A DNA stretch of 64,000 bases, taken from the IMG/VR virus record IMGVR_UViG_3300042197_002234, positions 32,001 to 96,000 of that record. One strand, written 5' to 3'. Origin of the DNA: a virus. The notes under the pieces were generated by a model that had not been told where the DNA came from, ran no database searches, and saw only the letters and a list, made by a program, of their open reading frames with translations. Position 1 is the first letter of the stretch; each line of letters starts with the position of its first letter. This document shows positions 1-30,068 of the stretch, piece by piece. Position numbers and translations under genes: made by a program.

Positions 1-408
1 CAAAATAATAGATTTTTAAATGGTTGCTCTTTTGAGTGGGATAGCGAAAACAACAAGTTAAGATTTTCTAAAGATTTTTATAATAGAGTTAATTTAGATA
101 TACCAATTTTACATGAAGAAATTGATATTTTTTCTGATGAGTTTACAATTGATTTTAAAAGAAGTGAAAATAAATTTTATGTACAAAACATAGTAAAACC
201 ACAAACTTTAACATTTAAAATATATGATTGTATTACTGGTGGATTAATATATGAAACAACCATGGAATTAATTCCTCAATATAATTATTTCATTTATCCA
301 TCACAAAATAACTTTGATAGTGATGAGAATTTTAAAAAATTTAGAGTTGAGGTCTTGAAAGAAAATCAAATAATACATAATGAATTTATACATTTAAAAT
401 ATGAATAA
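1..408 (+). CDS. Partial hypothetical protein (C-terminal end; begins before the window), part of glycosylation island 1
   Basis: Frame +1 is open from base 1 to TAA at 406-408 (QNNRFLNGCSFEW...HNEFIHLKYE*) and overlaps the ATG of the next gene (ATGAATAA). Not in the ORF track. Confidence 0.8.
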   Translation, partial: QNNRFLNGCSFEWDSENNKLRFSKDFYNRVNLDIPILHEEIDIFSDEFTIDFKRSENKFYVQNIVKPQTLTFKIYDCITGGLIYETTMELIPQYNYFIYPSQNNFDSDENFKKFRVEVLKENQIIHNEFIHLKYE

Positions 409-1345: not shown

Positions 1346-1346
1346 T

Positions 1347-4031: not shown

Positions 4032-5011
4032 TGAAAAAATTAATTGTTATTGGGGCTTACCCAAATACACCAAAAAAGAAAGAAGTTTTAGTTGATGAAA
4101 TAAAATCGTTAAAATCTTTAGATTTTGATTTTATGTTGGTCACACATTATCCTACTCCTGTATATATACAGGAAATGTTTGATTACTACATTTATGATAA
4201 AAATCAAACTTTAACACCATTAGATAAAACAACATATTTTTGGTTTAATAGTGGTTCTTTTCTTGTTAGAATAAATAACTCAAGGCACGCTTTACCTATA
4301 AGTCAAAGTATGTTTAACGCTTTTAAATTTTCTGAAATAAAAAACTATGATTTTGTTTATTTTATTGAAAACGATAATTGGTTTTCAGAGAATGATTCTA
4401 AAAAACTTTCTGATTTGGTTACCACTATGTTTGAAAATAACAAAAAATGTATTTTTTTTAAACCTGAAAGTTATAGAGACAATGGTTCTTACGTTTACGA
4501 AACTCAGTTATTTGGAATAACCCCAAAATATTTTAATCAAGTTTTTAATTTACCTATAACAGAAGAAGAGTACTTTTCACATCCAACATATCCCGTTAGT
4601 TTAGAGTTAGGTTTTTATCAAAAACTTTCTGAGTTTGAAGATGATTTTTTAATAATAAATGAACACTCCTATCAATATTTTAATGAAAGTAAAATTAATA
4701 TTTTTAGGGTTGAAAATTTATTAATAGATTTAGTTTATAATAGTAAAAATCCTGCTCAACCTGTTTTGTTTTGTTATGGTAATAGAGTTTTTGACGACTT
4801 ATATAGAGTAATTGTAAGGTTAAATAACATTATAATTAATGATAGAAATTTACATTCAAACAATTGGTTTTATCAAACATTTGATTTGGATGGTAGTAAT
4901 TTGGTTTTTGAAATTTATAACAATGATGTACTACAAGAAAAAAAATCTTATACTTTAGATGAACACTTAATAGATAATTTAAAAGATAAAGGTATAATAG
5001 ATTTTAATTAA
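4031..5011 (+). CDS. Putative glycosyltransferase-like protein, paralogous to the central domain of 1347-4031
   Basis: KLIVIGAYPNTPKKKEVL...FMLVTHY...IQEMFDYYIYDK aligns by eye with ELVMIGTYPNTKSREKLT...VMLVSHY...IQEKVDYYVYDK. FIEND is DxD-like. Confidence 0.55.
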   Translation: MKKLIVIGAYPNTPKKKEVLVDEIKSLKSLDFDFMLVTHYPTPVYIQEMFDYYIYDKNQTLTPLDKTTYFWFNSGSFLVRINNSRHALPISQSMFNAFKFSEIKNYDFVYFIENDNWFSENDSKKLSDLVTTMFENNKKCIFFKPESYRDNGSYVYETQLFGITPKYFNQVFNLPITEEEYFSHPTYPVSLELGFYQKLSEFEDDFLIINEHSYQYFNESKINIFRVENLLIDLVYNSKNPAQPVLFCYGNRVFDDLYRVIVRLNNIIINDRNLHSNNWFYQTFDLDGSNLVFEIYNNDVLQEKKSYTLDEHLIDNLKDKGIIDFN

Positions 5012-5012
5012 T

Positions 5013-5558
5013 ATGGCACACAACCAACAACAAAATTTTTACGGTAGGGTTAAAAATAAATTTCCAAAATATTTTAGAGATGTTAAAGTACTTGATATAG
5101 GTTCTTTAGACATAAATGGTAATACAAAACATTTTTTTTCACATCCACTATATTATGTCGGTGTGGACCTTTCAGAAGGTAATAACGTAAATGTGGTTTG
5201 TCCTGGTCACCTTTATGATTCAGGATTCCAATTTGATGTTGTAATGTCTTCTGAGTGTTTTGAACATGATATGTATTACCCAAGGACAATATCAAATATG
5301 ATTAAACTATTAAAACCAAATGGATTAATGATATTTACTTGCGCATCTACAGGAAGACCTGAACATGGTACATTAAGGTCAAATCCTACCGACGCACCAT
5401 TTTTACAAAATATTGATGAAAAATGGGCGAATTATTATAAAAATTTAACAGAGGATGACATTAGAGCAATTATAAATGTTGAAGACATTTTCAGTGATTA
5501 CGGTTTTGAATATGAACCATCTTCATGTGATTTATATTTTTGGGGAATTAAAAAATAA
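5013..5558 (+). CDS. Class I SAM-dependent methyltransferase
   Basis: VLDIGSLDING, YVGVDL, FDVVMSSECFEH and LLKPNGLMIF motifs. Confidence 0.9.
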   Translation: MAHNQQQNFYGRVKNKFPKYFRDVKVLDIGSLDINGNTKHFFSHPLYYVGVDLSEGNNVNVVCPGHLYDSGFQFDVVMSSECFEHDMYYPRTISNMIKLLKPNGLMIFTCASTGRPEHGTLRSNPTDAPFLQNIDEKWANYYKNLTEDDIRAIINVEDIFSDYGFEYEPSSCDLYFWGIKK

Positions 5559-5564
5559 TAATTA

Positions 5565-6251
5565 ATGAATGTTGATGTAATTTGTTTAACTAACACATAC
5601 GATTACAGTATGTTTGAAGTAACAAAAAGAGTTATTAAGTCATTACATTTGTCTGAAAAAAATATTAAGTTTAATATTATTCTATTAGAAAGCAATAAAA
5701 ACAATCCATATGTATATACGGATGTTGATTTTTATATAAAACCTGAAGAAGATTTTAATTATAACAAATATTTAAATATCGCAAATAAATACCTAACATC
5801 AGATTGGGTTTTGATTACAAATAATGATGTAATCTATCAAAGAAATTGGTTTTCAAAAATATTAGAGATATATAATAAACGACCTGATATAGAATCTTTC
5901 TCACCTAAAGAAGTACTTTTTTATTCAACAATATACGGAGACCATTTTGATTCTGACGATGAATATTGGGAAAATTATAAAGTAACCGAAGGTCTTTTAG
6001 GATGGTCTTTATTAATGAAAAAAAAAGTTTGGGATGAGGTTTATCCGTGGGACGAACAATTCGATTTTTTTTATCAAGATAATGATTATGCAAAAATAAT
6101 AGAATCAAAAGGTATTAAACACGCAATAGTTAGAGATTCATTGACTTTACATATAGGTAATTTAAATTTCTTTAAAGATGTTGTTGACCACGAAAGAAAT
6201 ACAAAAATGAAAGAAGGGTATAATAAATTTTTAAATAAATGGGGTAATTAA
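5565..6251 (+). CDS. GT2-family glycosyltransferase
   Basis: FNYNKYLNIA, WVLITNNDV (DxD region), W-D-E-x-F-x-F-F-Y-Q-D-N-D-Y acceptor motif, LHIG. Confidence 0.85.
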   Translation: MNVDVICLTNTYDYSMFEVTKRVIKSLHLSEKNIKFNIILLESNKNNPYVYTDVDFYIKPEEDFNYNKYLNIANKYLTSDWVLITNNDVIYQRNWFSKILEIYNKRPDIESFSPKEVLFYSTIYGDHFDSDDEYWENYKVTEGLLGWSLLMKKKVWDEVYPWDEQFDFFYQDNDYAKIIESKGIKHAIVRDSLTLHIGNLNFFKDVVDHERNTKMKEGYNKFLNKWGN

Positions 6252-8357
6252 ATGAGAATAATACACGTAACACCAGGAATGATACCAATCCCACCTAATG
6301 GATGGGGTGCGGTAGAAAAAATAATTTGGGAATACCATAAAAATTTACAGAAGTTAGGTTATGAATCTGAAATTAGATACCTAAATGAGGTTAACTATAA
6401 AGATGGTGACATCGTACACATCCACATAGCCAATTTAGCTTTGGAGACATATGAAAGAGGAATACCATATATTTTCTCATTACATGACCACCATGTGGTA
6501 TATAATGGAAAAGATTCTTTTAATTATAAACAAAACTTAGAAGCAATTAAAAAATCAGTAGTTTCATTCTGTCACGCAGAATATTTGGTTGATTATTTTG
6601 ATGAAACCGATAAGTTGTTTTATTTGTCGCATGGTGTAAACACAGATTTCTTTAAAGTAGAAAATCCATACAGAAGTGAACATCGTTTATTGTGTTTAGC
6701 TAATAACGGAATCGGTGGTGATTCATCTTATGATAGGAAAGGTTTCAGATATGCAATTGAAGCTGCAAAAAAATTAAATTTACCAATCACTGTCGCGGGC
6801 CCCGATAACAACAAAAACTTCTTTCAACACCATTTAGATTTAATGGATTATGATAAACTAACATTGTTGTTTGATAATCCAAATGAAGACAGTATTTTAG
6901 AGTTGTATAAAAATCACTCAATATTTTTACACCCATCTTCATTAGAAGCTGGTCATCCAAATTTAACATTATTAGAGGCGATATCTTGTAATCTACCAAT
7001 AGTTGGAACTTACGAAGGTAATAGAAAAATACACGGTATGATTGTGACTGAAAGAGATTCAAATCGTGTTGCAAACTCAATTCAAGAAATAATATCAAAT
7101 TATGAATATTATGTTAATGAAACTTTTAAAAATAAAGAAAATTTTGATTGGTCTACAATAACAAATAGATTATCAAAAATGTACAATTTAGTTAGTATTA
7201 TTAAAAAAGAGTATAATTCTGAAGAAACAAAAAGTTTATTAATTAATAATATTGAAAATACATCAAGGTTTGATTATAAAAAAGATAATAACTTAACATT
7301 TAATGTTCATTTTGTAAACAACCCGTTTTTTGAAATTTTAGGTGATTCAGATAAAGAATATAATGTTCTTTTTTATGATAATGATGAACTAATTTATTCA
7401 ACAAAACTTAGAGCCAATATGTGGTCAAAACTTAATAGGTCATATTATACAAATTGGATAATTGAGGTTTACGATGAAGACAAATTAATTTATAGATACA
7501 CAACTAACTTTACAGGTAAAAGAGTTTTTATTTCATTTGACTCAAAGTCATTAGGGGATAATGTATCTTGGATACCGTATGTGTTAGAATTTAAGAAAAA
7601 ACACAATTGTAATGTTGTTGTTTCAACATTTTGGAATAAACTATTTAAGGATGTGTATCCCGAACTCGAGTTTGTTGAGCCAGGTAGTGTTGTGGATGAT
7701 TTAGTCGCAATGTATAGAATAGGATGGTTTTATGATAATAATCAAGAACCAGTTTTACCAAGTACTATTCCACTACAAAAAGCAATTACAAATATTTTGG
7801 GATTAGAGTTTGAGGAAATAAGACCAAGAATTCACTTTGAACCAAAAGAAAGATTGTTTGAGGAAAAGTATATCACAATCGCAAATGAATCTACTGCAGG
7901 TTTAAAGTTATGGAACAATCCTAATGGTTGGCCAGAATTAGTATCATATTTAAAATCAAAAGGTTATAGAGTGGTTAATGTATCTAAAAATGGTGAAAGA
8001 TTAAAAGGTGTTACACAACTAAAAGACACGTCAATTGAAAATACCATGAATGCTATTTATCATAGTGAGTTCTTTATTGGTTTATCTAGTGGGTTGTCTT
8101 GGTTAACATGGGGGTTAGGTAAACATGTAGTTATGATTTCAAACTTCACTGAGTATGACCATGAATTTACTTCAAACTGCACAAGAATTACAAACCCATC
8201 TGTCTGTCATGGATGTTGGAATAACCCTATGTTTAAGTTTGATAAGGGTGATTGGAATTGGTGTCCTGAGCATAAAGGAACTGAAAGACATTTTGAATGT
8301 CATAAATCAATAACTGCGGAAATGGTTATAGAAAAAATAAAACATTTATTACAATGA
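6252..8357 (+). CDS. Fusion of an N-terminal GT4 domain with an Aah/TibC-type (autotransporter strand-loop-strand) protein O-heptosyltransferase-like domain
   Basis: N-terminal IPPNGWGAVEK and HPSSLEAGHPNLTLLEAI (GT4). C-terminal SLGDNVSWIPY, FFIGLSSGLSWLTW and the Cys set CHGCWN...WCPEHKGTERHFEC match my recollection of the TibC/Aah catalytic and iron-finger motifs. Confidence 0.85.
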   Translation: MRIIHVTPGMIPIPPNGWGAVEKIIWEYHKNLQKLGYESEIRYLNEVNYKDGDIVHIHIANLALETYERGIPYIFSLHDHHVVYNGKDSFNYKQNLEAIKKSVVSFCHAEYLVDYFDETDKLFYLSHGVNTDFFKVENPYRSEHRLLCLANNGIGGDSSYDRKGFRYAIEAAKKLNLPITVAGPDNNKNFFQHHLDLMDYDKLTLLFDNPNEDSILELYKNHSIFLHPSSLEAGHPNLTLLEAISCNLPIVGTYEGNRKIHGMIVTERDSNRVANSIQEIISNYEYYVNETFKNKENFDWSTITNRLSKMYNLVSIIKKEYNSEETKSLLINNIENTSRFDYKKDNNLTFNVHFVNNPFFEILGDSDKEYNVLFYDNDELIYSTKLRANMWSKLNRSYYTNWIIEVYDEDKLIYRYTTNFTGKRVFISFDSKSLGDNVSWIPYVLEFKKKHNCNVVVSTFWNKLFKDVYPELEFVEPGSVVDDLVAMYRIGWFYDNNQEPVLPSTIPLQKAITNILGLEFEEIRPRIHFEPKERLFEEKYITIANESTAGLKLWNNPNGWPELVSYLKSKGYRVVNVSKNGERLKGVTQLKDTSIENTMNAIYHSEFFIGLSSGLSWLTWGLGKHVVMISNFTEYDHEFTSNCTRITNPSVCHGCWNNPMFKFDKGDWNWCPEHKGTERHFECHKSITAEMVIEKIKHLLQ

Positions 8358-8734
8358 AAATAGAAGTATCAATTGGTGAGATTGTTGACAAATTAACAAT
8401 TTTGGAAATTAAAAAAGATAAAATAAAGGATGAAAATAAATTGGTTGATATCTTAAAAGAGTATAACTATTTAAAAGATGTTGTAACAAATGAAATTGGA
8501 TTTTCATTAGAATCCGAAGAATATAAAGATTTATTGGAAACAAATAAAAAACTTTGGGATATTGAAGACCATATTAGAAATAAAGAAAAAAGAAAATCTT
8601 TTGATATTGAATTTATTGAGTTGGCTAGAAATGTGTATATTACAAATGATGTTAGAGCATCACAAAAAAAAGATATAAATCTGAAACTTAATTCAGAATT
8701 TATAGAACACAAATCATATTCTGACTATAAATAA
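8354..8734 (+). CDS. Small helical protein resembling the DUF6165 family
   Basis: EVSIGEIVDKLTILEIK...LWDIEDHIR...FIELARNVYITNDVR...K..IN pattern, recognised from memory. Confidence 0.65.
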   Translation: MKIEVSIGEIVDKLTILEIKKDKIKDENKLVDILKEYNYLKDVVTNEIGFSLESEEYKDLLETNKKLWDIEDHIRNKEKRKSFDIEFIELARNVYITNDVRASQKKDINLKLNSEFIEHKSYSDYK

Positions 8735-8765
8735 AAAAAGGGGGGTTTTAAAACTCCCTTTTTTT
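8733..8765. terminator. Bidirectional intrinsic terminator between convergent genes
   Basis: A7-GGGGGG-TTTTAAAA-CTCCC-T7 hairpin with U-tracts on both strands. Confidence 0.8.
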
Positions 8766-11700
8766 ATAATGGGTCATTACATTCGTTATAAACTAATGTG
8801 TATGTAAAATATCTAGGACCCGCATTAGTACCATCTGAGTTAAAACCAACTATAATGTTTGTGTTACATTCAAGTATTTCGTCCTGTAATGTAAGGGTAA
8901 AACAAGCCACGCCAGCGGCGTTAAATGAGGTAACATCACTTGCTATTTCAGTTATAGTAAATGTAGATGATGTTAAATCATCACATTCGTATTTAAAAAG
9001 ATATGCGGTTACACTATTAGCCAAACCATCAACAGGACTTGTTACAGTACCACACAATTTTATAGTTCCAGAACTTAACATGTCGATAGGTACTGGTACA
9101 CCTATAAATCCTTGTGTTCTGGTATCGAAGGGTGATATTCCATCCCAAGCGATATCCCAAGGACATCCATTCCAACCACAAGTATTATTGGCGATGTAAA
9201 CGTCAGTATCATTAGGTCCTTGTGTCCAACTACCTGAATTTGATGCTAATAAAAATTGTCTTTTAATGTTAATTGTTGCATCACCTGTAGTGCCTTCAAC
9301 AATACCACAAGACCCCGCAACTGTTAAACCTGTGACACTAGTTACCGTAGTAGCACCATCGGTGACAGTTAAAGAACCACCACCACTTGATGTACCCGAA
9401 CTACCCGAGGTTCCTGATGAACCTGTTTGACCTGCAGTACCTGAACTACCTGAACTACCACTTGAACCTGAGGTACCGCTAGCCCCACTAACACCACTTG
9501 TGCCCGCAGTTCCATTAGCTCCGCTAGTACCTGAAGTTCCTTTAGTTCCTGAGGTTCCACTAGACCCTGAAGTACCCGAACTACCTGAAGAACCACTTGA
9601 ACCTGATGTTCCACTTGTTCCTGAAGTACCGTTAACTCCTGAAGTACCACTTGTACCATTAACTCCTGAAGTACCACTTGTACCAATCGAACCATCACAA
9701 CCATTACAACATACTTTGAAACATAATACATCACCATAAGAGAATGGACTTGCGGAACTTGAAGATGCGAATATCGGACCTTCAATAAAGAAGGAAGTAG
9801 AATTCAATCTTCCAACACCAGACCAATCTGAATAGTGTACAAATTTTGTTGGGTCTGCTTGATTATATATTGTTAAATTTCCACCACAAATACATTTGTT
9901 GAAAACTTCATATTGATTTACACCATTGTTATCAAAATCATAGAAGTGTAAATATGTTGCTGCCGATACAGTTAACGTAGTTGCTGAAGAACCTGTGATA
10001 AACGCAAATTCACCATTAGAATCAGGAGTACTATCGTTTGTTAACGTATATGGTAAACAATAAGCTGATACCCCACTAGTTCCTGATGTTCCACTTGTTC
10101 CTGAACTACCTGACGTTCCTCTAGTTCCTGATGTTCCTGAAGAGCCGCTGCTGCCACTTGAGCCCGAAGAACCCGACGTTCCACTTGTTCCTGATGAACC
10201 ACTTGAACCTGAACTACCTGATGTTCCACTTGAACCTGAAGAACCTGAACTTCCTGATGAACCACTGCTACCACTAGTACCAGATGTACCCGAACTACCT
10301 GATGAACCACTTGAACCTGAAGAACCGCTACTTCCACTTGTGCCTGATGTACCTGAGCTACCTGATGTTCCGCTAGTTCCTGAACTACCTGATGAGCCGC
10401 TTGAACCTGACGAACCACTAGTGCCTGATGTTCCTGAAGAACCACTACTTCCACTAGAACCTGAACTTCCTGAAGAACCACTTGTGCCCGAAGTACCACT
10501 ACTTCCGCTAGACCCTGAACTTCCGCTCGAACCTGAAGTACCCGAAGAACCGCTACTACCGCTTGTTCCTGATGTTCCACTTGAGCCTGACGTTCCGCTA
10601 GTCCCTGAAGAACCACTTATACCTGAAGTTCCTGAACTACCTGATGTTCCTGAAGAGCCAGATGACCCCGAAGAACCTGAGCTACCTGATGAACCGCTAG
10701 ACCCACTTGTACCCGCAGTCCCTGAACTTCCTGATGTTCCACTTGTTCCTGATGAGCCACTTGTACCGCTCGAACCTGAGGAACCACTATTTCCACTTGA
10801 ACCCGACGTTCCACTTGTTCCTGAAGAACCACTACTACCGCTTGAGCCCGAGCTACCTGAAGTACCACTAGTTCCTGAACTTCCTGAAGAGCCGCTACTA
10901 CCACTTGACCCTGAAGAACCGCTACTACCGCTTGTTCCTGAAGTTCCACTATTTCCTGAAGAACCACTTGAACCACTACTACCGCTAGAACCCGATGTTC
11001 CACTAGTTCCTGAACTTCCTGAAGAGCCGCTACTACCACTTGACCCTGATGTTCCGCTAGTCCCTGAAGAACCTGAAGTACCACTTGTACCACTAGTTCC
11101 CGAACTACCTGATGAACCACTACTACCGCTAGAACCTGATGAACCGCTAGTTCCACTTGAACCTGAAGAGCCAGAACTTCCTGAAGAACCACTACTACCG
11201 CTCGAACCTGAACTACCTGATGTCCCACTTGTACCTGAAGAACCGCTTGTACCTGACGTGCCGCTTGAGCCTGATGACCCACTACTTCCTGAACTACCGC
11301 TAGAACCTGAAGTTCCTGAACTGCCAGAAGAACCACTACTACCGCTAGAACCTGAAGTTCCTGAAGAACCTGATGTTCCGCTAGTACCTGATGACCCTGA
11401 ACTTCCACTACTACCTGAAGAACCGCTTGTACCGCTAGTACCCGAACTACCTGAAGTTCCACTTGTTCCTGATGACCCTGAACTTCCACTACTACCGCTA
11501 GAACCTGATGTTCCACTAGTTCCCGAAGAGCCGCTTGTACCGCTTGTTCCTGAACTACCCGAAGAACCACTACTACCGCTTGAGCCCGAGCTACCTGAAG
11601 TTCCGCTTGTTCCTGACGAGCCGCTACTACCCGAACTTCCACTACTACCCGATGTTCCACTCGTTCCTGATGAGCCACTTGTGCCACTAGAACCTGAGCT

Positions 11701-14700
11701 ACCTGAAGAACCGCTAATTCCACTTGTTCCCGAAGAACCTGAACTTCCTGAAGAACCACTACTTCCTGATGTACCGCTAGTACCGCTAGTACCTGAACTA
11801 CCGCTAGAACCTGAACTTCCTGAAGAACCGCTGCTACCACTAGAGCCTGATGTGCCGCTAGTTCCCGAACTTCCACTTGTACCGCTAGTTCCTGAAGAAC
11901 CTGAACTACCACTAGAACCCGAAGCACCGCTTGTACCTGATGAGCCGCTTGAACCTGAAGAGCCTGATGAACCACTACTACCGCTAGTTCCTGATGTACC
12001 ACTTGACCCACTACTACCGCTTGAACCTGAACTTCCTGATGAGCCTGATGTACCGCTTGTTCCTGAAGAACCACTTGAGCCTGAACTTCCCGATGAACCA
12101 CTACTACCGCTAGTTCCTGATGAGCCACTACTACCACTTGTACCAGATGTACCTGAACTTCCTGAAGTACCACTAGTTCCTGATGTTCCCGAACTACCAC
12201 TCGTACCCGAACTTCCTGAAGAACCGCTAGTACCTGCAGTACCTGAAGAACCCGATGTTCCACTTGAACCTGAGCTACCTGATGAACCGCTACTACCGCT
12301 AGTTCCTGATGAACCACTAGTACCGCTAGTACCTGAACTACCGCTTGAACCTGAAGAACCACTACTTCCACTTGTGCCGCTAGTACCTACAGTTCCTGAT
12401 GAACCACTAGTACCGCTAGTACCTGAACTACCGCTTGAACCTGAAGAACCACTACTTCCACTAGTACCCGAAGTACCTGAACTTCCTGATGTACCGCTTG
12501 AGCCTGAACTACCCGATGTTCCACTAGTTCCTGAAGAACCACTAGACCCTGAACTACCTGAAGTTCCGCTAGTTCCTGAAGAACCTGATGTTCCGCTAGT
12601 TCCTGAAGAACCACTAGACCCTGAACTACCTGAAGTTCCGCTAGTTCCACTTGAGCCTGATGACCCTGAACTTCCACTACTACCTGAAGAACCACTTGTA
12701 CCGCTAGTACCCGAACTACCTGAAGTTCCACTTGTTCCTGAAGAGCCTGATGAACCACTACTACCGCTTGAGCCCGAGCTACCTGAAGAGCCGCTTGTTC
12801 CTGCAGTTCCTGAACTACCTGAAGAACCACTACTACCTGATGTTCCACTAGTTCCTGATGAACCACTTGTACCGCTAGTTCCACTTGAACCACTACTACC
12901 TGAAGTACCTGAAGAGCCACTAGACCCTGAACTTCCGCTACTACCGCTTGAACCCGATGTTCCACTTGTACCGCTAGTTCCTGATGTTCCTGAAGAACCT
13001 GATGTTCCGCTTGTTCCTGAACTACCTGATGAACCACTACTACCACTAGTCCCTGAAGTACCACTAGTTCCTGAAGTACCACTAGTTCCCGAACTTCCTG
13101 AAGACCCTGATGTTCCGCTAGTACCTACAGTACCTGATGTTCCTGAAGAACCACTTGTACCGCTTGTACCTGACGAACCACTAGACCCACTAGAACCTGA
13201 ACTACCACTTGTTCCTGAACTTCCTGAAGTCCCACTAGTACCTGATGAACCTGATGTTCCACTAGTTCCACTTGAACCTGAACTTCCTGAAGAGCCACTT
13301 GTACCGCTAGTTCCTGATGTTCCACTAGACCCTGAACTTCCTGATGAACCCGAAGTTCCACTAGTTCCTACAGTACCACTACTTCCGCTAGACCCTGAAC
13401 TTCCGCTCGAACCTGAAGTACCCGAAGAACCGCTACTACCGCTTGTTCCTGATGTACCTGACGAGCCTGATGTTCCACTAGACCCTGAACTTCCTGAAGT
13501 CCCACTAGTACCAGAACTTCCTGATGTTCCGCTAGTTCCTGAACTACCGCTTGTTCCTGATGTACCTGACGAGCCTGATGTTCCACTAGACCCTGAACTT
13601 CCTGATGTTCCGCTAGTACCACTTGTACCCACAGTTCCTGAGCTTCCTGACGTACCGCTTGAGCCTGAGCTTCCTGAAGTCCCACTAGTACCAGAACTTC
13701 CTGATGTTCCGCTAGTTCCTGATGAACCGCTTGAACCTGAGCTACCTGAAGAACCTGATGTTCCACTTGTACCCGAACTTCCTGAAGACCCTGAACTTCC
13801 ACTACTACCGCTAGAACCTGATGTTCCACTAGTTCCCGAAGAGCCGCTTGTACCGCTTGTTCCTGAAGTTCCACTTGAACCTGAAGTACCGCTAGAACCA
13901 GAAGAGCCGCTACTACCACTAGAACCTGATGTTCCACTTGTACCCGCAGTACCTGAGCTTCCTGATGAACCGCTACTACCTGATGAGCCACTTGTACCGC
14001 TTGTTCCTGAACTACCCGAAGAACCACTACTACCGCTAGAACCTGATGTTCCACTTGTACCCGAAGTACCTGAGCTTCCTGACGTTCCACTAGTTCCCGA
14101 AGAACCACTAGACCCTGAAGAGCCTGAACTACCTGAAGTTCCACTAGTTCCTGATGAGCCACTTGTGCCCGAAGTTCCACTTGAACCTGAACTTCCTGAT
14201 GAACCGCTACTACCTGATGTCCCACTTGTACCTGAAGAACCACTAGTTCCTGATGAACCACTACTACCACTTGTACCAGATGTACCTGAACTACCACTTG
14301 TACCTGATGTTCCTGAAGAACCGCTTGACCCTGAAGAACCTGAGCTACCTGAAGTTCCGCTTGTTCCCGAAGAGCCTGATGTACCACTTGTGCCTGAAGT
14401 TCCACTTGAACCTGAACTTCCTGATGAACCTGACGTACCGCTAGTTCCTGAAGAACCACTACTTCCGCTTGAACCTGAGGTTCCACTTGTACCTACAGTC
14501 CCTGATGTACCTGAACTACCTGATGTTCCGCTACTTCCACTAGAACCTGAACTTCCGCTTGTTCCTGATGTTCCTGAACTACCACTTGTACCGCTAGTTC
14601 CTGATGAACCACTTGAACCCGAACTTCCTGATGAACCACTACTACCGCTAGTACCATTAGTTCCACTTGTTCCCGAAGAACCTGATGTTCCACTTGACCC

Positions 14701-17700
14701 ACTACTACCACTTGTACCTGATGTTCCTGAAGAACCGCTTGACCCTGAAGAACCTGAGCTACCTGAAGTTCCGCTTGTACCGCTTGTTCCCGAACTTCCT
14801 GATGTACCGCTAGTTCCTGAAGAACCACTTGTTCCTGAAGTTCCACTTGAACCTGAACTTCCTGATGAGCCACTACTACCGCTTGAACCTGAGGAACCGC
14901 TACTACCGCTAGTTCCTGATGAACCACTACTTCCACTAGAACCTGATGTTCCGCTAGTACCTGAACTACCGCTCGAGCCTGATGTACCGCTAGTACCCGA
15001 ACTACCTGATGAACCACTACTACCACTTGAACCTGAGCTACCTGATGTTCCGCTAGTTCCAGAAGAACCACTAGACCCTGAACTTCCACTACTTCCTGAT
15101 GAACCTGATGTTCCACTAGTACCTACAGTCCCACTTGAGCCAGATGTACCCGAACTACCTGACGAACCACTAGAACCTGAACTACCACTTGTTCCGCTAG
15201 TTCCTGATGTTCCACTTGTTCCTGAAGTCCCACTAGTACCTGATGAACCTGATGTTCCACTTGTTCCCGAAGAGCCTGATGTACCACTTGAGCCTGAACT
15301 ACCAGAAGACCCCGATGTACCACTACTTCCACTTGTGCCGCTAGTTCCTGATGAACCATCTGTTCCACTAGTACCTGAGCTACCTGAAGTGCCGCTAGTT
15401 CCTGATGAACCACTTGACCCTGATGTTCCGCTAGTTCCTGAAGTTCCGCTAATACCCGAAGTACCACTTGTACCGCTAGTACCTGATGTTCCTGAAGAAC
15501 CATCAGTTCCACTTGTTCCTGAAGTACCACTACTACCATCTGTTCCTGATGTTCCACTTGACCCTGATGTACCCGAAGTTCCTGAGCTACCATCAGTACC
15601 TGAAGTTCCGCTTGAACCCGATGTTCCTGATGAACCACTAGTTCCTGATGAACCACTAGTTCCTGATGAACCACTAGTTCCGCTAGTTCCTGATGAGCCA
15701 TCAGTACCACTACTACCGTCTGTACCACTAGAACCTGATGTTCCGTTAGTTCCACTTGTACCATTACTACCGTCAGTACCTGAACTCCCACTAGAACCTG
15801 ATGTTCCGCTAGTTCCACTTGTACCATTACTACCGTCAGTACCTGAAGTTCCGCTTGTTCCCGAACTACCACTAGTACCTGATGTTCCACTAGTTCCTGA
15901 CGAACCACTGCTACCACTAGTACCTGATGTGCCATTACTACCATCAGTTCCTGATGAACCTGAAGTTCCACTAGTTCCGCTACTACCATCTGTTCCGCTT
16001 GTTCCTGAAGTACCGCTTGAACCTGATGTTCCACTTGTTCCTGAAGTACCGCTTGAACCTGAAGTTCCACTTGTTCCTGAAGAACCTGAGGTACCACTAC
16101 TTCCGTCAGTACCGCTACTACCATCTGTTCCGCTTGTTCCCGATGAACCACTTATACCTGAAGTACCGCTACTACCATCTGTTCCACTAGTTCCTGAAGT
16201 ACCACTACTACCATCAGTTCCGCTAGTTCCACTTGTTCCTGATGAACCATCTGTTCCGCTAGTTCCGCTTGAACCTGAAGTTCCGCTAGTTCCCGAAGAA
16301 CCTGATGTACCACTAGTACCACTACTACCATCTGTTCCTGATGTACCACTAGTTCCTGAAGTACCATTACTTCCATCAGTTCCGCTTGAACCTGATGTAC
16401 CACTTGTTCCTTTAGAACCATTTACACCGCTAATACCTGAAGAACCTGATGTACCATTAGTTCCTGAAGTTCCACTTGTTCCTGATGAACCATCTGTTCC
16501 GCTAGTTCCACTTGAACCATCTGTTCCGCTAGTTCCACTTGTTCCTGATGAACCGCTTGTTCCTGAGGTTCCACTTGTTCCAGAACTTCCATCAGTACCA
16601 CTTGTTCCTGAAGTTCCTGATGAACCATCTGTTCCGCTAGTACCTGATGTTCCTGAAGAGCCATCCGTTCCGCTATTACCCGAAGTTCCCGATGAACCAT
16701 CTGTTCCTGAATTTCCGCTAGTTCCCGATGAACCATCTGTTCCTGAAGTTCCGCTAGTTCCGCTTGAACCATCTGTTCCTGAAGTTCCGCTAGTTCCGCT
16801 TGAACCATCCGTACCTGAAGTTCCACTAGTTCCCGATGAACCATCTGTACCTGAAGTTCCACTAGTTCCCGATGAACCATCCGTTCCGCTAGTACCCGAA
16901 GTTCCCGATGAACCATCCGTTCCGCTAGTACCACTAGTTCCTGATGAACCATCTGTTCCGCTAGTACCACTAGTTCCTGATGAACCATCTGTTCCTGACG
17001 TACCACTAGTTCCTGATGAACCATCTGTTCCACTGGTTCCTGAAGAACCGCTTGTCCCACTACTACCATCCGTACCTGAACTACCACTTGTTCCTGAAGT
17101 GCCGCTACTACCATCAGTACCTGAAGTTCCACTAGTACCACTTGAGCCATCAGTACCTGATGAACCATCCGTACCACTAGTACCACTAGTTCCTGAAGTT
17201 CCGCTTGAACCTGATGTTCCACTAGTTCCTGAAGTACCATTACTTCCGTCAGTTCCGCTTGAACCTGATGTTCCACTAGTTCCTGAACTTCCATCAGTAC
17301 CACTTGTTCCTGAAGAACCATCAGTTCCGCTAGTACCTGAAGTTCCACTTGTTCCTGAAGAACCGTCTGTCCCACTAAAACCACTTGTCCCTGAAGTTCC
17401 ATTTGAACCATCTGTACCTGAAGTACCACTTGTTCCTGAAGAACCACTAGTACCCGAAGAACCGTCAGTTCCGCTTGAACCTGATGTGCCGCTACTACCA
17501 TCAGTCCCTGAACTACCATCAGTCCCTGAACTACCATCAGTCCCTGAACTACCATCAGTCCCTGAACTACCTGACGTACCACTAGTTCCTGATGTACCAT
17601 TAGAACCATCCACACCACTTATTCCTGAAGAACCTGAAGAACCACTTGTTCCTGAAGAACCGTTTGTCCCACTAGAACCACTTGTCCCTGAACTTCCATC

Positions 17701-18795
17701 TGTACCACTAGAACCACTTGTCCCTGAACTTCCATCTGTACCACTAGTACCACTTGTTCCTGAAGAACCGTCTGTTCCACTCGAGCCACTTGTTCCTGAA
17801 GAACCGTCTGTTCCACTAGAGCCACTTGTGCCTGAACTTCCATCTGTTCCTGACGAACCATCAGTACCTGAACTTCCACTTGTCCCTGAACTTCCATCCG
17901 TACCTGATGAACCATCAGTACCTGAACTTCCTGAAGAACCACTAGTTCCTGAACTACCATCAGTACCTGAACTTCCATCAGTTCCGCTTGTACCTGAAGA
18001 ACCACTTGTACCTGAAGAACCACTTGTACCTGAACTTCCGCTTGTTCCTGATGAACCTGAAGTTCCTGATGAACCACTTGAGCCTGAACTTCCTGATGTA
18101 CCTGAACTTCCTGATGTACCGCTAGTTCCTGATGACCCACTTGAACCTGAAGTTCCGCTTGTTCCTGAACTACCATCTTGACCGCTAGTCCCTGATGTAC
18201 CATCTTGACCGCTAGTACCTGAACTACCATTTGTACCTGAAGACCCACTACTTCCGCTAGACCCTGAACTACCGCTACTACCTGAACTACCGCTACTACC
18301 TGAACTTCCTGAAGTTCCACTAGTACCTGAACTACCATCTTGACCGCTAGTCCCTGATGTGCCATCTTGACCGCTAGTACCTGAACTACCTGGAGAGCCA
18401 GTACCGCTTGTTCCCGAAGACCCACTACTACCTGGAGAGCCAGTACCGCTTGTTCCCGAAGACCCACTACTACCTGAAGTTCCTGACGAACCACTATTTC
18501 CACTTAAACCTGAACTACCTGAAGTACCGCTACTACCCGAAGACCCACTTGTACCTGAACTACCATCAGTACCTGATGTGCCATCAACACCACTTGTTCC
18601 TGAGCTACCGTCAATACCACTTGTTCCTGAAGTTCCACCTAAAGCCAAAGCATCTGCAACTTGTTTTATGGTTGCTTTATATGATGAGCCTGCAGGATTT
18701 TGGGAAGTGTCCCCTGTTATTACTATGTGGATTACGTCGTTTTCCGAAACTCCTGTTGCTAGTACCCTGTCTGTAAGTCTTTGATAATTCGGCAT
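8764..18795 (-). CDS. Giant (3343 aa) Gly-X-Y Ser/Thr-rich repeat protein, probable virion fibre or appendage
   Basis: ATG at 18795, TAA at 8764-8766. About 50 aa of unique N-terminus, about 2850 aa of GSS/GTS/GTD triplets, a Cys-containing domain, a second short triplet run and about 200 aa of globular C-terminus. TATTTATA motif 12 nt upstream. Confidence 0.9.
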   Translation of the reverse strand: MPNYQRLTDRVLATGVSENDVIHIVITGDTSQNPAGSSYKATIKQVADALALGGTSGTSGIDGSSGTSGVDGTSGTDGSSGTSGSSGSSGTSGSSGLSGNSGSSGTSGSSGSSGTSGTGSPGSSGSSGTSGTGSPGSSGTSGQDGTSGTSGQDGSSGTSGTSGSSGSSGSSGSSGSSGSSGSSGSSGTNGSSGTSGQDGTSGTSGQDGSSGTSGTSGSSGSSGTSGTSGSSGTSGSSGSSGSSGTSGSSGTSGSSGTSGSSGTSGSSGTSGTDGSSGTDGSSGTSGSSGSSGTDGSSGTDGSSGTSGSSGTDGSSGTDGSSGTSGSSGTDGSSGTSGSSGTDGSSGTSGTSGTDGSSGTSGSSGTDGSSGTSGSSGTNGSSGTSGSSGSSGISGVDGSNGTSGTSGTSGSSGTDGSSGTDGSSGTDGSSGTDGSSGTSGSSGTDGSSGTSGSSGTSGTSGTDGSNGTSGTSGFSGTDGSSGTSGTSGTSGTDGSSGTSGTDGSSGTSGTSGSSGTDGSNGTSGTSGTSGSSGTSGTSGTSGTDGSSGTDGSSGTSGTSGTDGSSGTSGTSGSSGTDGSSGTSGSSGTSGTDGSSGTSGTSGTDGSSGTSGTSGTDGSSGTSGTSGTDGSSGTSGTSGTDGSSGTSGTSGTDGSSGTSGTSGTDGSSGTSGTSGTDGSSGTSGTSGTDGSSGTSGNSGTDGSSGTSGNSGTDGSSGTSGTSGTDGSSGTSGTSGTDGSSGTSGTSGTSGSSGTSGTSGTDGSSGTSGTDGSSGTSGTSGTNGTSGSSGISGVNGSKGTSGTSGSSGTDGSNGTSGTSGTSGTDGSSGTSGTSGSSGTSGTSGSSGTSGTDGSSGTSGTSGTDGSSGTSGTSGTDGSSGTSGISGSSGTSGTDGSSGTDGSSGTSGSSGTSGTSGSSGTSGTSGTSGSSGTSGTSGTDGSSGTSGTSGSSGTDGSNGTSGTSGSSGSSGTSGTSGTSGSSGTSGTSGTDGSNGTSGTSGTSGSSGSSGTDGSNGTSGTNGTSGSSGTDGSSGTDGSSGTSGTSGSSGTSGSSGTSGSSGTSGSSGTSGTDGSSGTSGTSGSSGTSGTDGSSGTSGTSGTDGSSGTSGTSGTSGTSGISGTSGTSGTSGSSGSSGTSGTSGSSGTSGTDGSSGTSGTSGSSGTSGSSGSSGSSGTSGSSGTSGTSGSSGTSGTSGTSGTSGTSGTSGSSGSSGSSGSSGTSGSSGTVGTSGTSGSSGSSGSSGSSGSSGTSGTSGSSGSSGSSGSSGSSGTSGTSGSSGSSGTSGTSGSSGSSGSSGTSGSSGSSGSSGSSGSSGSSGSSGTSGTSGSSGTSGTSGSSGTSGTSGTSGSSGSSGSSGSSGTSGTSGSSGSSGTSGSSGTSGTNGTSGSSGSSGSSGSSGSSGTSGTSGSSGTSGTSGSSGSSGSSGTSGSSGTSGTVGTSGTSGSSGSSGSSGTSGTSGSSGSSGSSGTSGTSGTSGSSGTSGTSGSSGSSGSSGSSGTSGTSGSSGTSGTSGSSGSSGTSGSSGTSGTSGSSGSSGSSGSSGTSGTSGSSGTSGTSGSSGSSGSSGSSGTSGTSGSSGTSGTSGTSGSSGSSGSSGSSGTSGTSGSSGSSGSSGSSGTAGTSGTSGSSGSSGSSGSSGTSGSSGTSGTSGTSGSSGTSGTSGSSGSSGSSGSSGSSGTSGTSGSSGSSGSSGSSGTSGTSGSSGTSGTSGSSGSSGTSGSSGTVGTSGTSGTSGSSGSSGTSGSSGTSGTSGSSGTSGTSGSSGTSGTSGSSGSSGTSGSSGTSGTSGSSGSSGTSGSSGSSGSSGSSGTVGTSGTSGSSGSSGSSGTSGTSGTSGSSGSSGSSGTSGTSGSSGTSGTSGSSGTSGSSGSSGSSGSSGTSGTSGSSGTSGTVGTSGTSGSSGSSGTSGTSGTSGTSGTSGSSGSSGSSGTSGTSGSSGTSGTSGTSGTSGSSGSSGSSGSSGSSGTSGSSGSSGTSGTSGSSGTSGTSGSSGSSGSSGTAGTSGSSGSSGSSGSSGSSGSSGTSGTSGSSGTSGTSGSSGSSGSSGSSGSSGTSGTSGSSGSSGSSGTSGTSGSSGTSGTSGSSGSSGSSGTSGTSGSSGSSGTSGSSGTSGTSGSSGSSGSSGSSGTSGTSGSSGTVGTSGTSGSSGSSGSSGSSGTSGTSGSSGTSGSSGSSGSSGSSGTSGSSGTAGTSGSSGSSGTSGSSGTSGTSGTSGSSGTSGTSGSSGSSGTSGSSGSSGSSGSSGSSGTSGTSGSSGSSGSSGSSGSSGTSGTSGSSGSSGSSGSSGSSGTSGASGSSGSSGSSGTSGTSGSSGTSGTSGSSGSSGSSGSSGSSGSSGTSGTSGTSGSSGSSGSSGSSGTSGISGSSGSSGSSGTSGSSGTSGTSGSSGSSGSSGSSGTSGTSGSSGSSGSSGSSGSSGTSGTSGSSGTSGTSGSSGSSGSSGSSGTSGTSGSSGTSGTSGSSGSSGSSGSSGTSGTSGSSGTSGSSGSSGSSGSSGTSGSSGSSGSSGSSGSSGTSGTSGSSGTSGTSGSSGSSGSSGSSGSSGSSGSSGTSGSSGSSGSSGSSGSSGTSGTSGTSGSSGTSGTSGSSGSSGSSGSSGTSGTSGSSGSSGSSGSSGNSGTSGTSGSSGSSGSSGSSGSSGSSGTSGTSGSSGSSGSSGSSGTSGTSGSSGNSGSSGSSGTSGSSGTSGTSGSSGTAGTSGSSGSSGSSGSSGSSGSSGTSGSSGTSGISGSSGTSGTSGSSGTSGTSGSSGSSGTSGSSGSSGSSGSSGTSGTSGSSGSSGSSGSSGSSGTSGTSGSSGSSGSSGSSGTSGTSGSSGTSGTSGSSGSSGSSGSSGSSGTSGTSGSSGSSGSSGSSGSSGTSGSSGSSGSSGTSGTSGSSGSSGSSGSSGTSGTRGTSGSSGTSGTSGTSGVSAYCLPYTLTNDSTPDSNGEFAFITGSSATTLTVSAATYLHFYDFDNNGVNQYEVFNKCICGGNLTIYNQADPTKFVHYSDWSGVGRLNSTSFFIEGPIFASSSSASPFSYGDVLCFKVCCNGCDGSIGTSGTSGVNGTSGTSGVNGTSGTSGTSGSSGSSGSSGTSGSSGTSGTKGTSGTSGANGTAGTSGVSGASGTSGSSGSSGSSGTAGQTGSSGTSGSSGTSSGGGSLTVTDGATTVTSVTGLTVAGSCGIVEGTTGDATINIKRQFLLASNSGSWTQGPNDTDVYIANNTCGWNGCPWDIAWDGISPFDTRTQGFIGVPVPIDMLSSGTIKLCGTVTSPVDGLANSVTAYLFKYECDDLTSSTFTITEIASDVTSFNAAGVACFTLTLQDEILECNTNIIVGFNSDGTNAGPRYFTYTLVYNECNDPL
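10070..18630 (-). repeat. Degenerate 9-nt-period coding repeat (Gly-Ser/Thr-Ser/Asp triplets) with exact sub-duplications
   Basis: Gly at every third residue. Exact 84-nt copy at 10492-10575 = 13372-13455; 72-nt copy at 12301-12372 = 12391-12462; 42-nt tandem near 18390-18474. Confidence 0.95.
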
Positions 18796-19168: not shown

Positions 19169-21838
19169 TTAACAACTACCAACCGAAGGTGATGGTGTTG
19201 GAGTTTGTGTTGGAGTTTTACTTGGTTTTGGGGTTTTACTTGGGTCAGGACAACCGCATGGATTTGTACAAGTTACTGACGGTGTAGGGGTATTTGTTGA
19301 AGTAGGGGTTTGAGTCATTGTTGGTGTTGGTGTTGGACTTGGAACTTTACAAGGGTCAAAAGAAGGTGTTGGGGTTACAGTTGGAGTAACTGTAGGTGTA
19401 GGTGTTTTAGTAGTTGTTGGTGTTGGGGTTGGTGTAGGTGTTGGTCTATTAACATATAAAACAAAATTGCATGTTGGGTCACAACTACCTGGTACAGTAG
19501 TTAATGTATAAGAACCATAAACCTCTCTTGGTGGAACTAACAAATACGGTCTAAATAAAAATGGTATTGTATGTTCACCTAAATTAATTATTATATCTTC
19601 ATTATCAGGTTTAAAAATAATGTTCATTAATTCACCATCATAGTTATTACTATCAATAATAATTTCATTAGTCGAACCTGAACTACCTGATATTACATAC
19701 GTAAAATCATCTTCTAAACATTCTGTAGTACAATCGGGACAATCAGGGTTAAACATCCTGAATGTATTTTTTAATAAATTAAAATTGTGTTTAACCTCAG
19801 GTGCGGATAGAGGTGTTACATACATTCTAAATTGTGATATACCACCTTCAAACGTCCCTGCAAAATTTTGTTCTATTAATATATGGTTATCCATACCATT
19901 AAATGTTGTACCTGTTAAATCATTAACAGGAAAACATTCAGGGTCTTGAATGTATGGTCCGTTTGGTAAAGTTGTTGATGAAAAAACAAGATTTTCTCTT
20001 AACCCTTGTGTTCCGCCACCCCAAGAAATATTAAATGGTACCCCAACTTGTCGTTCTTTATCAGTGTTTAAAGCTCTTGGAATTATCTCTTCAAAATCTT
20101 CTATGGTATGAAATAATTTACCGTTAATGTAAATTTTTAATCTACCACTTCTCATTTTCTTTTCTAACAACCATTTGTCATTTAAATTGACAATTTGAAT
20201 TGTTTCAGGTGTTTTACCGTTAATATTAGTGTATGGTATTGTTATTAATGACGCTGCGTTATTGGCTAAACTTTCCAAATGTAGTGTTTCGGTAATGTCA
20301 CCCAATCCACCTCTATACCACAAATCACAAACATCTAACCATGTGTATCGTTCCCAAACCGCATCAAACTGAAACCATCTTTCAATATCTAACCATGATG
20401 GACAAACTTCTGCACAGAACGGGTATATTGGTGTAGTACAATAATCAAATATTGTATATCCTGTTGTGAATGTTGTTCCTGTATTTTCACAAGAACCCGT
20501 AGTTGTACAATCACCAGTAAATCTTAAAACTCTAATACCTATTGATGGATTCTTTGGGTCACCACATAATCTAAACGACATTGCGTTAGACATTGAATCG
20601 TATAACGGGTCTTTTTCACACGTATTTTCTATTGAGGTAAAACCTGTATAACAATCCACACAATCATCACAAGTATCACAATTTGTACATGTTGGAGTAC
20701 AAGTTGGTTCTGGTTTCCAACAATCAGGAGTAGGACTTGGTGTCGGTGTAGGCGTGGGGGTTGGTATTATTATATTTGCACACTCATGTTTTTGACATTC
20801 CCAACCACAAGTTTCACAAGGATAATCATTACAATCACATCCACAACTTATTGTTTTTTGTGGGTCACCTTTACAAAAATCACAACCGTAATTTACATGA
20901 GGGTCATGAATGTTATTTACTGACCTTGGTGGGTAAACATAGATACATCTACTATTTGTTATAGTTCTATTACAACAAGCACAAGTTTCAAGTTTTGTTA
21001 AACCTGAAGTAACTCTATTATAGTTTGGGAAACATTTTGGGTTACCATCAGCGTGATGCCAAAATTTATTTTCCGACCTCGTTCCAAAATAAAAGAAAGT
21101 ATTTTTATTGTTTGGATATATTTCATTTAAAGTTGTTTCATTAGGTCCTGGTGTATATTCATTAACCAATCTAGGTTTTAATAACATTTCAATAGCCCAA
21201 CCTTTGTTTGTCCTTTCAGGAAAAACCTCATAATCATACCCAAATAATTTATAAAATCCTTGATAAAATCCACCATATAATTCATGATACATTCCTTCAT
21301 ACGGACTAGTTTTTGACACAACTTCATATAATACAGTTTTGTTAAAACCCGAAAATCTAACATTGGGTGAAGTACTCGTATATCCAGTGACTTGGAAAAG
21401 TTTCAGTCTTCTGTCAAAATACAACCTATTAAATTTTAGAAAATCACTAAACAATCCTTCAGTAAAGGTTATAGTTTCACCTGTTAATTTGGTTACTAAT
21501 CCGTTATCAGTACCAACTAATCCTATATCACAAGATGTGTTTGCCGAAAAACAAGCTAAATCTTTATTTTCAGGATTATAATAATTTTGAGAAACAAAAA
21601 TATTGTTGTAATTATATTGTTTATAATTTAATGTTAATTTTTGTGATGTTAATGGATTGTTGGTATCAAAATATATAGGTAATCTATTCCCATATGTTTG
21701 AGCGATTAAATACGGTGAGAATATTACTTCTTCATTATAATCTCTTTCATCGGTAGACAATGACATATCATTGGACTCTAAACTAAAACTTAAAGACCAA
21801 TTCGGACGAGGATATTGATTAATATTTTGACTCGGCAT
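19169..21838 (-). CDS. Cys-rich, Pro/Thr-linker protein with a LamG/concanavalin-like domain, probable virion protein
   Basis: LKIYINGKL...[24 protein letters not shown] matches the LamG C-terminal pattern. Many CxxC/CxC motifs and two (PT)n tracts. Confidence 0.7.
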
Positions 21839-30066: not shown

Positions 30067-30068
30067 AA

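Follow-up and report, generated by a model that had tools for sequence, protein, structure and literature searches.

What links an enzyme of the TibC/Aah type to a neighbouring protein of more than three thousand residues that is almost wholly glycine, serine and threonine, and what might the one do to the other? The question is raised by IMG/VR virus record IMGVR_UViG_3300042197_002234, of which we analysed positions 32,001 to 96,000, a stretch of 64,000 nucleotides that we call the window and to which all plain coordinates below refer. Here a transferase gene at 6252-8357 converges on a fibre gene at 8764-18795. Comparative genomics supports a link between enzyme and fibre, and we consider it probable, as judged from sequence, that both belong to a module by which the phage O-glycosylates protein, its own collagen-like fibre serving as the acceptor. 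The features at the centre of this proposal are:

6252-8357, + strand: two-domain transferase of 701 residues, with a glycosyltransferase family 4 (GT4) domain at about residues 160-290 and a TibC/Aah-type domain at residues 372-698 (nucleotides 7365-8345)
8354-8734, + strand: DUF6165 protein (PF19662, E 1.4e-9), its start overlapping the transferase stop codon
8731-8767, no strand assigned: hairpin between A7 and T7 runs, at the 30-base gap between the end of the enzyme operon and the end of the fibre gene
8764-18795, - strand: collagen-like fibre of 3343 residues (31% Gly, 42% Ser, 16% Thr)

The initial annotation recognised the enzyme by a TibC/Aah signature set, and all three of its motif groups, SLGDNVSWIPY, FIGLSSGLSWLTW and CHGCW...WCPEH...FEC, are present in the 701-residue protein. 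The profile and structure searches that it proposed as a check bear the assignment out. Residues 372-698 score 286.6 bits against TIGR04414 (hepto_Aah_TibC), whose curated cut-off is 200, and align with profile positions 31-373 of 374; in the PDB they match the TibC chains 4rb4 (E 1.2e-49) and 4rap. The Pfam GT9 model, which describes heptosyltransferases of lipopolysaccharide (LPS), gives 20 bits on the same protein, under its cut-off. A GT4/GT1 domain (Pfam E 6e-10) makes up the N-terminal half, and the model of the TibC N-terminal barrel, PF21129, found no match in the 701-residue protein and a weak one in the homologue from Microcystis phage Mel-JY01.

Residue roles were taken from the TibC structure paper (PMC4358343) and transferred through the printed alignment. 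In TibC, Asp-110 is the catalytic base, Thr-226 and Lys-230 are ligands of the beta-phosphate, Trp-305 contacts the heptose O4, and Cys-339, 342, 358 and 370 make up an iron finger (PMC4358343). D436, T548, K552 and W617 of the phage enzyme align with the first four of these residues, and C652, C655, C671 and C683 with the iron cysteines. Across 59 distinct phage homologues the Asp, the Thr, the Lys and all four Cys never vary, and 58 of the 59 retain the Trp, a pattern that argues for retained catalysis; the four conserved cysteines form a putative iron finger, predicted to bind iron. That the 701-residue protein is a genuine member of the TibC/Aah family is well supported by these comparisons. 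It has no signal peptide and so should act in the cytoplasm. Matches with an E value of 1e-10 or lower number more than 5000 protein clusters, and many of these lie on contigs of 100-640 kb. In relatives the domain occurs alone (about 391 residues) or fused to GT4, to GT2 and GT4, or to a methyltransferase and GT4.

The giant neighbour was described at first as almost entirely Gly, Ser and Thr, which its composition bears out, and as an acceptor of about 2850 residues; the repeat is real and slightly longer, with 986 Gly-X-Y triplets, or 2958 residues, in strict register, of which 925 triplets run unbroken from residue 136 to 2910. The triplets are GSS, GTS and GTD: X is filled by Thr or Ser, Y by Ser in 90% and otherwise mostly by Asp (at only 65 Y positions), and no Pro stands within a triplet. 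Over the first 600 residues the Pfam Collagen model (PF01391) reaches 256 bits. From N to C terminus the protein, all of it on the - strand, divides into:

18637-18795, - strand: non-repeat N terminus of 53 residues, without a Pfam match, 59% identical to the N terminus of the collagen-like open reading frame (ORF) L036:3165-4997
10066-18636, - strand: main stalk, residues 54-2910 (2857 residues), broken only by two Ser-Pro dipeptides near the N terminus
9703-10065, - strand: non-repeat globular insert of 121 residues (2911-3031), without a Pfam match
9388-9702, - strand: second collagen-like segment, residues 3032-3136, 35 triplets
8767-9387, - strand: C-terminal head of 207 residues (3137-3343), predicted TNF/C1q-like jelly roll, without a Pfam match

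The N-terminal 53 residues are a possible virion-attachment end. The stalk lacks the Pro and the charged pairs that normally stabilise bacterial collagens, and it would measure about 0.85 µm if fully triple-helical (by arithmetic, at 0.286 nm per residue). The AlphaFold2 (AF2) model of the head is confident (predicted local distance difference test score, pLDDT, 85; predicted template-modelling score 0.81) and matches TNF in Foldseek at E 2e-5. By VIA-align its Z scores are 9.2 with 4-1BBL, 8.9 with the fibre domain of cyanophage A-1(L), 8.7 with PRD1 P5 and 7.0 with the C-terminal domain of BclA; by the tool's own calibration values of 7 to 9.2 are middling and common, so that the fold is likely and a trimer would be predicted from it, TNF/C1q-like folds usually forming trimers. 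The head has 36 relatives among 1.8 billion representatives, with four invariant Cys, and among the related loci it occurs only in the L009 group.

The repeat uses mixed synonymous codons, and at the DNA level its copies are no more than about 60-80% alike, which indicates that the repeat is kept by selection on the protein. A DNA satellite, or an artefact of reading the wrong strand (a frame of 2613 residues is also open on the + strand), was considered and rejected, since the - frame spans the region, has non-repeat ends and a folded head, uses mixed codons, and is of a type found in dozens of loci. With 58% Ser+Thr, the fibre (P0002) stands alone in the window as an extremely Ser/Thr-rich protein. 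Beside its gene lies another - strand gene, at 19169-21838, whose 889-residue product matches no family and contains 5% Cys and 9% Pro, with a Ser/Thr-rich tract near residue 808 (47% Ser+Thr); this protein could be another acceptor or a fibre-associated protein.

Between enzyme and fibre the initial annotation placed one small gene and a shared terminator, and this is the arrangement that we find: the DUF6165 gene at 8354-8734 is followed by the hairpin at 8731-8767. The hairpin has a folding energy of -16.7 kcal/mol (z -4.55) on the + strand and -11.9 kcal/mol (z -2.9) on the - strand; a scan for consensus terminators did not list it. It is likely a two-way intrinsic terminator shared by the convergent genes. 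The 10-mer TATATTTATA upstream of the fibre start codon occurs twice in the window, 1.0 being expected, and as it is not enriched we make no claim of a late promoter.

The association of the two genes was examined in both directions. In the forward search, 80 IMG/VR loci matched the TibC-like domain at 49-86% identity; of these, 53 have at least 8 kb of sequence downstream of the enzyme gene and 57 have 8 kb upstream. A Ser/Thr-rich Gly-X-Y ORF lies downstream, on the opposite strand, in 39 of the 53, and upstream in 3 of the 57. After collapse of near-duplicates the downstream pairing is found in 25 of 34 clusters at 95% identity and in 19 of 22 at 80%. Eighteen of the 80 contigs stop within 3 kb past the enzyme gene, as expected if repeats break assemblies. 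A further control through terminase relatives of the window's own clade was set aside, its matches being at least 79% identical, mostly on short contigs and not independent.

Six of the 14 loci lacking a downstream Gly-X-Y ORF carry giant Gly-rich ORFs instead, one of them with 14-residue beta-roll repeats and a Peptidase_S74 chaperone end, and mucin-like Thr-Pro ORFs are found in the negative loci L021 and L032 and in three of these six. Two Thr-Pro repeat ORFs, L033:4810-6654 (-) and L021:18734-21052 (+), contain 22-29% Thr and Cys-rich end domains, and no Gly-X-Y ORF is present at either locus. At L053:14445-20933 (-) the TibC-like gene is accompanied by a fibre of at least 2163 residues, built of beta-roll repeats of about 14 residues ('GGGxxNTASGxxSTV') and ending in a Peptidase_S74 chaperone; it matches an ice-binding beta-roll model weakly. 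This fibre is closer in style to autotransporter passengers and is a second kind of repetitive, Ser-rich neighbour.

Searching in reverse, we picked 48 IMG/VR records only for DNA coding GTSGTSGSSGTSGSSG and then applied the family model. A TibC-like gene was present in 15 of the 48; records of 60 kb or more had it in 12 of 15 cases and those at least 90% complete in 4 of 5. In INPHARED only 4 of 50,697 records carry it. Ten of the 15 carriers have the two genes within 10 kb of each other, in convergent, tandem or divergent order. Carriers of 66, 69, 249 and 299 kb, all complete or nearly so, have terminases that are 45%, 27% or undetectably similar to that of the window, and a 735-kb phage also carries the enzyme-repeat pair. 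Mel-JY01 (PP395634.1) has a GTS/GSS gene, then a 'structural protein', then a GT4-TibC fusion of 1226 residues; its GTS/GSS gene crosses the ends of the linear record (L003:1-3052 plus the end of L006) and has about 1788 codons when joined. In the deposited annotation this fibre appears as a short C-terminal 'hypothetical protein' and two wrong-strand coding sequences over the repeat, and the TibC-like fusion is labelled 'methyltransferase FkbM'. The co-occurrence analysis that had been suggested thus came out in favour of the pairing: the link between enzyme and collagen-like fibre is well supported, whichever gene one starts from, and holds in phage lineages that are unrelated and in more than one gene order.

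Bacterial relatives of the enzyme extend this pattern. The most distant members, at 33-38% identity, lie directly upstream of proteins with AIDA stalk repeats and an autotransporter beta-domain (PF16168, PF03797) in Burkholderia, Bradyrhizobium, Sporomusa and others; a TibC-type gene directly upstream of an autotransporter is the textbook arrangement. A gammaproteobacterial clade (Arenicellales and relatives, 38-43% identity) is flanked on both sides by small lipoproteins, each of which combines a signal peptide that has a Cys lipobox with a (GSS/GTS)n tract and, at the C terminus, a tail of poly-Asp. One of them matches Pfam Collagen, and they look like the bacterial counterpart of the phage pairing. 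The loci are:

L317:8516-12601, L320:8518-11887, L311:7793-9027 and L313:11216-11644: lipoprotein loci in gammaproteobacterial genomes

A quick maximum-likelihood tree splits the autotransporter-linked group from the rest with full support and recovers the lipoprotein-linked clade with support of 97 and the phage-dominated clade with 84, both opposite the autotransporter side. The tree is midpoint-rooted for drawing only, so no order of events is drawn from it. What it does convey is that the clade of the enzyme tracks the type of repetitive, Ser-rich neighbour. A (Gly-Ser/Thr-Ser)n neighbour recurs in two unrelated protein contexts; this is the strongest argument for the repeat as the acceptor.

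If the module acts on the phage's own fibre, as we favour, its course could be as follows. Late in infection, in the host cytoplasm, the TibC/Aah-type domain would move a first sugar from a nucleotide sugar to Ser or Thr hydroxyls of the stalk, much as TibC and Aah are known to glycosylate the Ser-rich repeats of the adhesins whose genes adjoin theirs. Extension and methylation of this glycan would fall to the fused GT4 domain and to the remaining transferases and methyltransferases of the operon (401-8734). A coat of this kind might serve in adhesion, protection or shielding, as the initial annotation proposed. The decorated trimeric fibre would then be mounted on the virion by its N terminus, with the TNF/C1q-like head at the end of a stalk of up to about 0.85 µm. 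The operon consists of seven + strand genes lying end to end, the last two of which are the transferase and DUF6165 genes; the other five are:

401-1345, + strand: FkbM-type methyltransferase (PF05050, E 6.9e-15), with homologues in 20 of the 80 TibC loci
1347-4031, + strand: 894-residue protein with a GT4 domain (Glycos_transf_1, PF00534, E 1.6e-9)
4031-5011, + strand: 326-residue protein without a Pfam or NCBIfam match, with homologues in 26 of the 80 loci
5013-5558, + strand: S-adenosylmethionine-dependent methyltransferase (PF13489, E 3.7e-8)
5565-6251, + strand: weakly GT2-like protein (PF00535, E 7.4e-4, under the cut-off)

An ORF that is open at the start of the window overlaps the first of these, so the operon may begin further upstream. 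The 894-residue protein has tblastn matches in 74 of the 80 loci, partly through the shared GT4 domain. The DUF6165 gene is found near the TibC-like gene in 37 of the 80, in two arrangements, and its family is mostly viral in the ESM Atlas. An alignment of the family has 36 invariant columns, the invariant polar residues including E9, D12, K13, N64, W68, E71, R75, N98, D99 and R101, and by this pattern they look more like an active or ligand-binding site than like a passive partner. The predicted structure is a four-helix bundle (AF2 pLDDT 88) for which a search against solved structures gave no match below E 0.3.

Several points weigh against a module directed at the fibre. The glycan on the stalk, the expression of the fibre and its location on the virion are predictions from the genes alone, and the transfer of sugar onto the fibre, the order of the steps and the nature of the sugar are likewise deduced. 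Known TibC/Aah enzymes recognise a folded beta-helix motif, not a collagen-like chain. Strong as it is, the association is not obligatory: phages with the GTS repeat and without the enzyme exist, among them a 98%-complete record of 58 kb and an 84%-complete one of 148 kb, and at some enzyme loci the nearest 10 kb contain no Gly-X-Y ORF. The counts are also inflated, both by the relatedness of the phages behind many of the loci and by the tendency of adjacent genes to fall on the same contig.

The donor sugar belongs on the same side of the balance. Arg-286 of TibC contacts N1 of the adenine, the stated basis of its specificity for ADP-sugars, and the R286A mutant loses all or most of its activity (PMC4358343); in the phage enzyme T598 stands at this position. 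Among the 59 phage homologues the residue is T in 44, V in 9, R in 2, A in 2, I in 1 and D in 1, and the Arg is kept in the classical and the lipoprotein-linked bacterial clades. Genes of the GmhA, HldE and NTP-transferase types (SIS_2, CTP_transf_like, NTP_transferase) were not found in the 195 kb of the record, about 65% of the genome. With R286 replaced and no genes for ADP-heptose synthesis found, a heptose donor is doubtful. Loss of the Arg argues for a changed nucleotide in the donor, and since it is the adenine-contacting residue that is replaced, the sugar may be other than heptose; the donor could come from the host.

These features invite a broader form of the proposal, in which a phage-centred branch of the TibC/Aah family would have changed both its acceptor, to proline-free (Gly-Ser/Thr-Ser)n, and its donor, the latter suggested by the loss of the adenine-contacting Arg. 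Dense O-glycans would then replace Pro or hydroxyproline in a sub-micrometre triple helix, in many aquatic phages and in some gammaproteobacterial surface lipoproteins. We put this broader form forward tentatively, as rather unlikely.

The fibre need not be the only candidate acceptor. The enzyme and the sugar genes might instead modify other virion proteins (the head, the sheath or the 889-residue, Thr/Pro-containing protein) or several types of fibre, the collagen-like gene lying nearby because both belong to a late structural region. Most of the 14 loci without a downstream Gly-X-Y ORF have other repetitive fibres or Thr-Pro-rich ORFs, the ORF at 19169-21838 contributes its 47% Ser+Thr tract, and the glycosylated proteins of mycobacteriophages are, as far as the citation in PMC12619734 goes, capsid and tail-tube subunits. 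A shared late region would have to be squared with three results: sampling on GTS/GSS-coding DNA alone still gave the enzyme in 12 of 15 long records, the bacterial sister clade adjoins (GSS/GTS)n lipoproteins where no virion is involved, and Gly-X-Y ORFs are rare (3 of 57) on the other side of the enzyme gene. We therefore judge other virion acceptors unlikely to be the explanation.

Sugar genes outside the operon bear on a different alternative. Further groups lie at:

27887-29401, + strand: protein with two GT2 domains (PF13712, E 5e-18; PF00535, E 3e-9)
29413-35187, + strand: sugar-tailoring block, comprising a short DegT-like ORF, WbqC, a methyltransferase, a hexapeptide acyltransferase, PhyH and a GT2
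36871-38749, + strand: two glycosyltransferase-like genes, one a weak GT1 match and the other a GT2

The DegT-type aminotransferase ORF (29413-30066) encodes 217 residues that cover profile positions 18-227 of 360, where normal enzymes have about 370; it is truncated or split. An ordinary GT9-type gene lies about 1 kb before the window (G000:C1:30436-31176, the same as L002:1501-2241), with a Pfam E value of 3.7e-17 and 32 bits against the TibC model. In the gene census of the initial annotation, the three methyltransferases stand, and the figure of about ten glycosyltransferase genes holds roughly: we count seven ORFs with glycosyltransferase Pfam matches and nine glycosyltransferase domains, three of the matches being below the cut-off. 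Besides glycosyltransferases and methyltransferases, the window carries DegT-, WbqC-, acyltransferase- and PhyH-like genes.

A set of this kind could also be read as an island that remodels the host surface (LPS core, O-antigen or capsule) or the phage DNA, with the fibre left unmodified and the TibC-like domain acting as a heptosyltransferase directed at lipid, glycan or nucleic acid. The O-antigen style of the genes (DegT, WbqC, the acyltransferase, several GT2 and GT4) and the ordinary GT9 gene just upstream speak for it, and phage glycosyltransferases for serotype change or DNA hypermodification are well known (reviewed in PMC12619734). Yet the domain scores far above the TibC/Aah cut-off and below the general GT9 cut-off, it keeps the four-Cys iron finger that is specific to the protein-directed family, and across the family its gene adjoins a repetitive, Ser-rich protein. 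The two-way association with Gly-Ser/Thr repeats would also be left unexplained, and we hold remodelling of the host surface or DNA to be improbable.

Least probable is that the main task of the TibC-like domain is to help long fibres fold or assemble, as a ring, with little or no sugar transfer and a fibre that is perhaps a flexible Ser/Thr-rich tether without a triple helix: TibC is a dodecameric ring, built through its beta-hairpin thumb and iron finger, that encloses its substrate (PMC4358343), the Arg-286 equivalent is lost, donor-synthesis genes were not found in the 195 kb, and the stalk has neither Pro nor the charged pairs that stabilise bacterial collagens, yet the catalytic base, phosphate ligands and four Cys are invariant, the Trp is retained in 58 of 59 phage homologues, and in many architectures its fusion partners are GT4, GT2 and methyltransferase domains that look active.

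The setting of this locus is a viral record of 195.5 kb, about 65% complete by CheckV. The window has a G+C content of 26-31%, save for one 10-kb stretch at 48-50%, and is tailed-phage DNA, in which the major head protein, portal and large terminase are recognised. Its structural landmarks, with one further gene, are:

53669-55522: major head protein
59787-61592: portal
61812-63581: large terminase
24583-25344: homing endonuclease-like ORF with NUMOD3 and MTES_1575/DUF559 nuclease motifs, between structural and nucleotide-metabolism genes

The last of these is probably a homing endonuclease. The terminase is less than 30% identical to those of its nearest cultured relatives, and 12 kb of the window used as a DNA query against a phage collection gave no match, so the phage has no close cultured relative. 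Close homologues of the phage-type TibC-like gene are carried by contigs binned with Bacteroidota (L302-L305, from Sediminibacterium, Chitinophaga and 'Bacteroides' metagenome-assembled genomes), and L305 and viral contig L086 have identical TibC-like domains. Such contigs are probably of phage origin, either binned with Bacteroidota genomes or integrated in them, and they give a weak hint of a Bacteroidota host.

Were the fibre to prove glycosylated, a family so far known only in connection with autotransporter adhesins, in pathogenic proteobacteria, would be found to reach a very large number of phages from the environment and would gain a new type of acceptor, and phages would have a second, mechanistically distinct form of virion glycosylation after that of mycobacteriophages. 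Two questions would become testable: whether sugars can replace proline in the stability of a collagen helix, and what role hairy fibres on a micrometre scale play in the adsorption or protection of phages in lakes. There is also a practical side, in that such fibre genes break assemblies and get mis-annotated, as in Mel-JY01.

The closest known systems are TibC-TibA and Aah-AIDA-I of E. coli (BAHT; TIGR04414; 4RAP/4RB4), which the phage enzyme resembles in family, in catalytic residues and in the iron-finger Cys, and in which, as in the phage, the enzyme gene adjoins a very long, repetitive, Ser-rich surface protein. The phage enzyme differs in its fusion to GT4, in the change of R286 to Thr and in an N-terminal region that the barrel model does not match, and its neighbour is a Gly-X-Y collagen-like fibre, not a beta-helical passenger of an AIDA-type autotransporter. 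On the side of the fibre a close likeness is BclA, which forms glycosylated collagen-like filaments on the exosporium of Bacillus anthracis and ends in a C1q/TNF-like domain. The two proteins share a collagen-like stalk, a hydroxy-amino acid in each triplet and a jelly-roll head (model match at Z 7.0), and the phage stalk, too, would carry O-glycans made by neighbouring genes. BclA is, however, a spore protein with mostly Gly-Pro-Thr triplets, a stalk of tens to hundreds of residues, against 2958 in the phage, and glycosyltransferases that are not of the TibC type.

In its layout, with an attachment part at the N terminus, then a Gly-X-Y shaft and finally a knob of the TNF type, the fibre resembles the PRD1 spike P5 and other phage fibres with collagen-like shafts. 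The shaft of P5 is very short, whereas the fibre described here has some 986 triplets and a dedicated transferase operon at its side; we know of no report that P5 is glycosylated. Precedents for sugar on collagen-like repeats come from mimivirus, a eukaryotic-virus system with other enzymes in which collagen is glycosylated (L230) through hydroxylysine, and from the cuticle collagen of the eukaryote Riftia, in which galactosylated Thr stabilises the triple helix without hydroxyproline.

Among phages, the mycobacteriophages offer the parallel of glycosyltransferases that are encoded near structural genes and act on virion proteins of the same phage (Freeman et al. 2023, cited through PMC12619734). 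According to that citing account, their acceptors are the C termini of capsid and tail-tube proteins and their glycans have been demonstrated (PMC12619734). Their enzymes are not of the TibC type, and the present system is predicted from genes. The initial annotation held that a TibC-type enzyme with a Gly-X-Y acceptor had not been described, and our literature search agrees: it found no paper on such a pair, most subscription journals lying outside its scope, and TibC and phage were mentioned together only by chance. What is already known, then, is the O-glycosylation of an adjacent repetitive adhesin by TibC/Aah, the glycosylation of mycobacteriophage virions, and glycosylated collagen-like filaments in BclA and mimivirus. 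What appears to be new is the pairing of a TibC-type enzyme with a proline-free, collagen-like Gly-Ser/Thr-Ser candidate acceptor, and its wide occurrence in phages.

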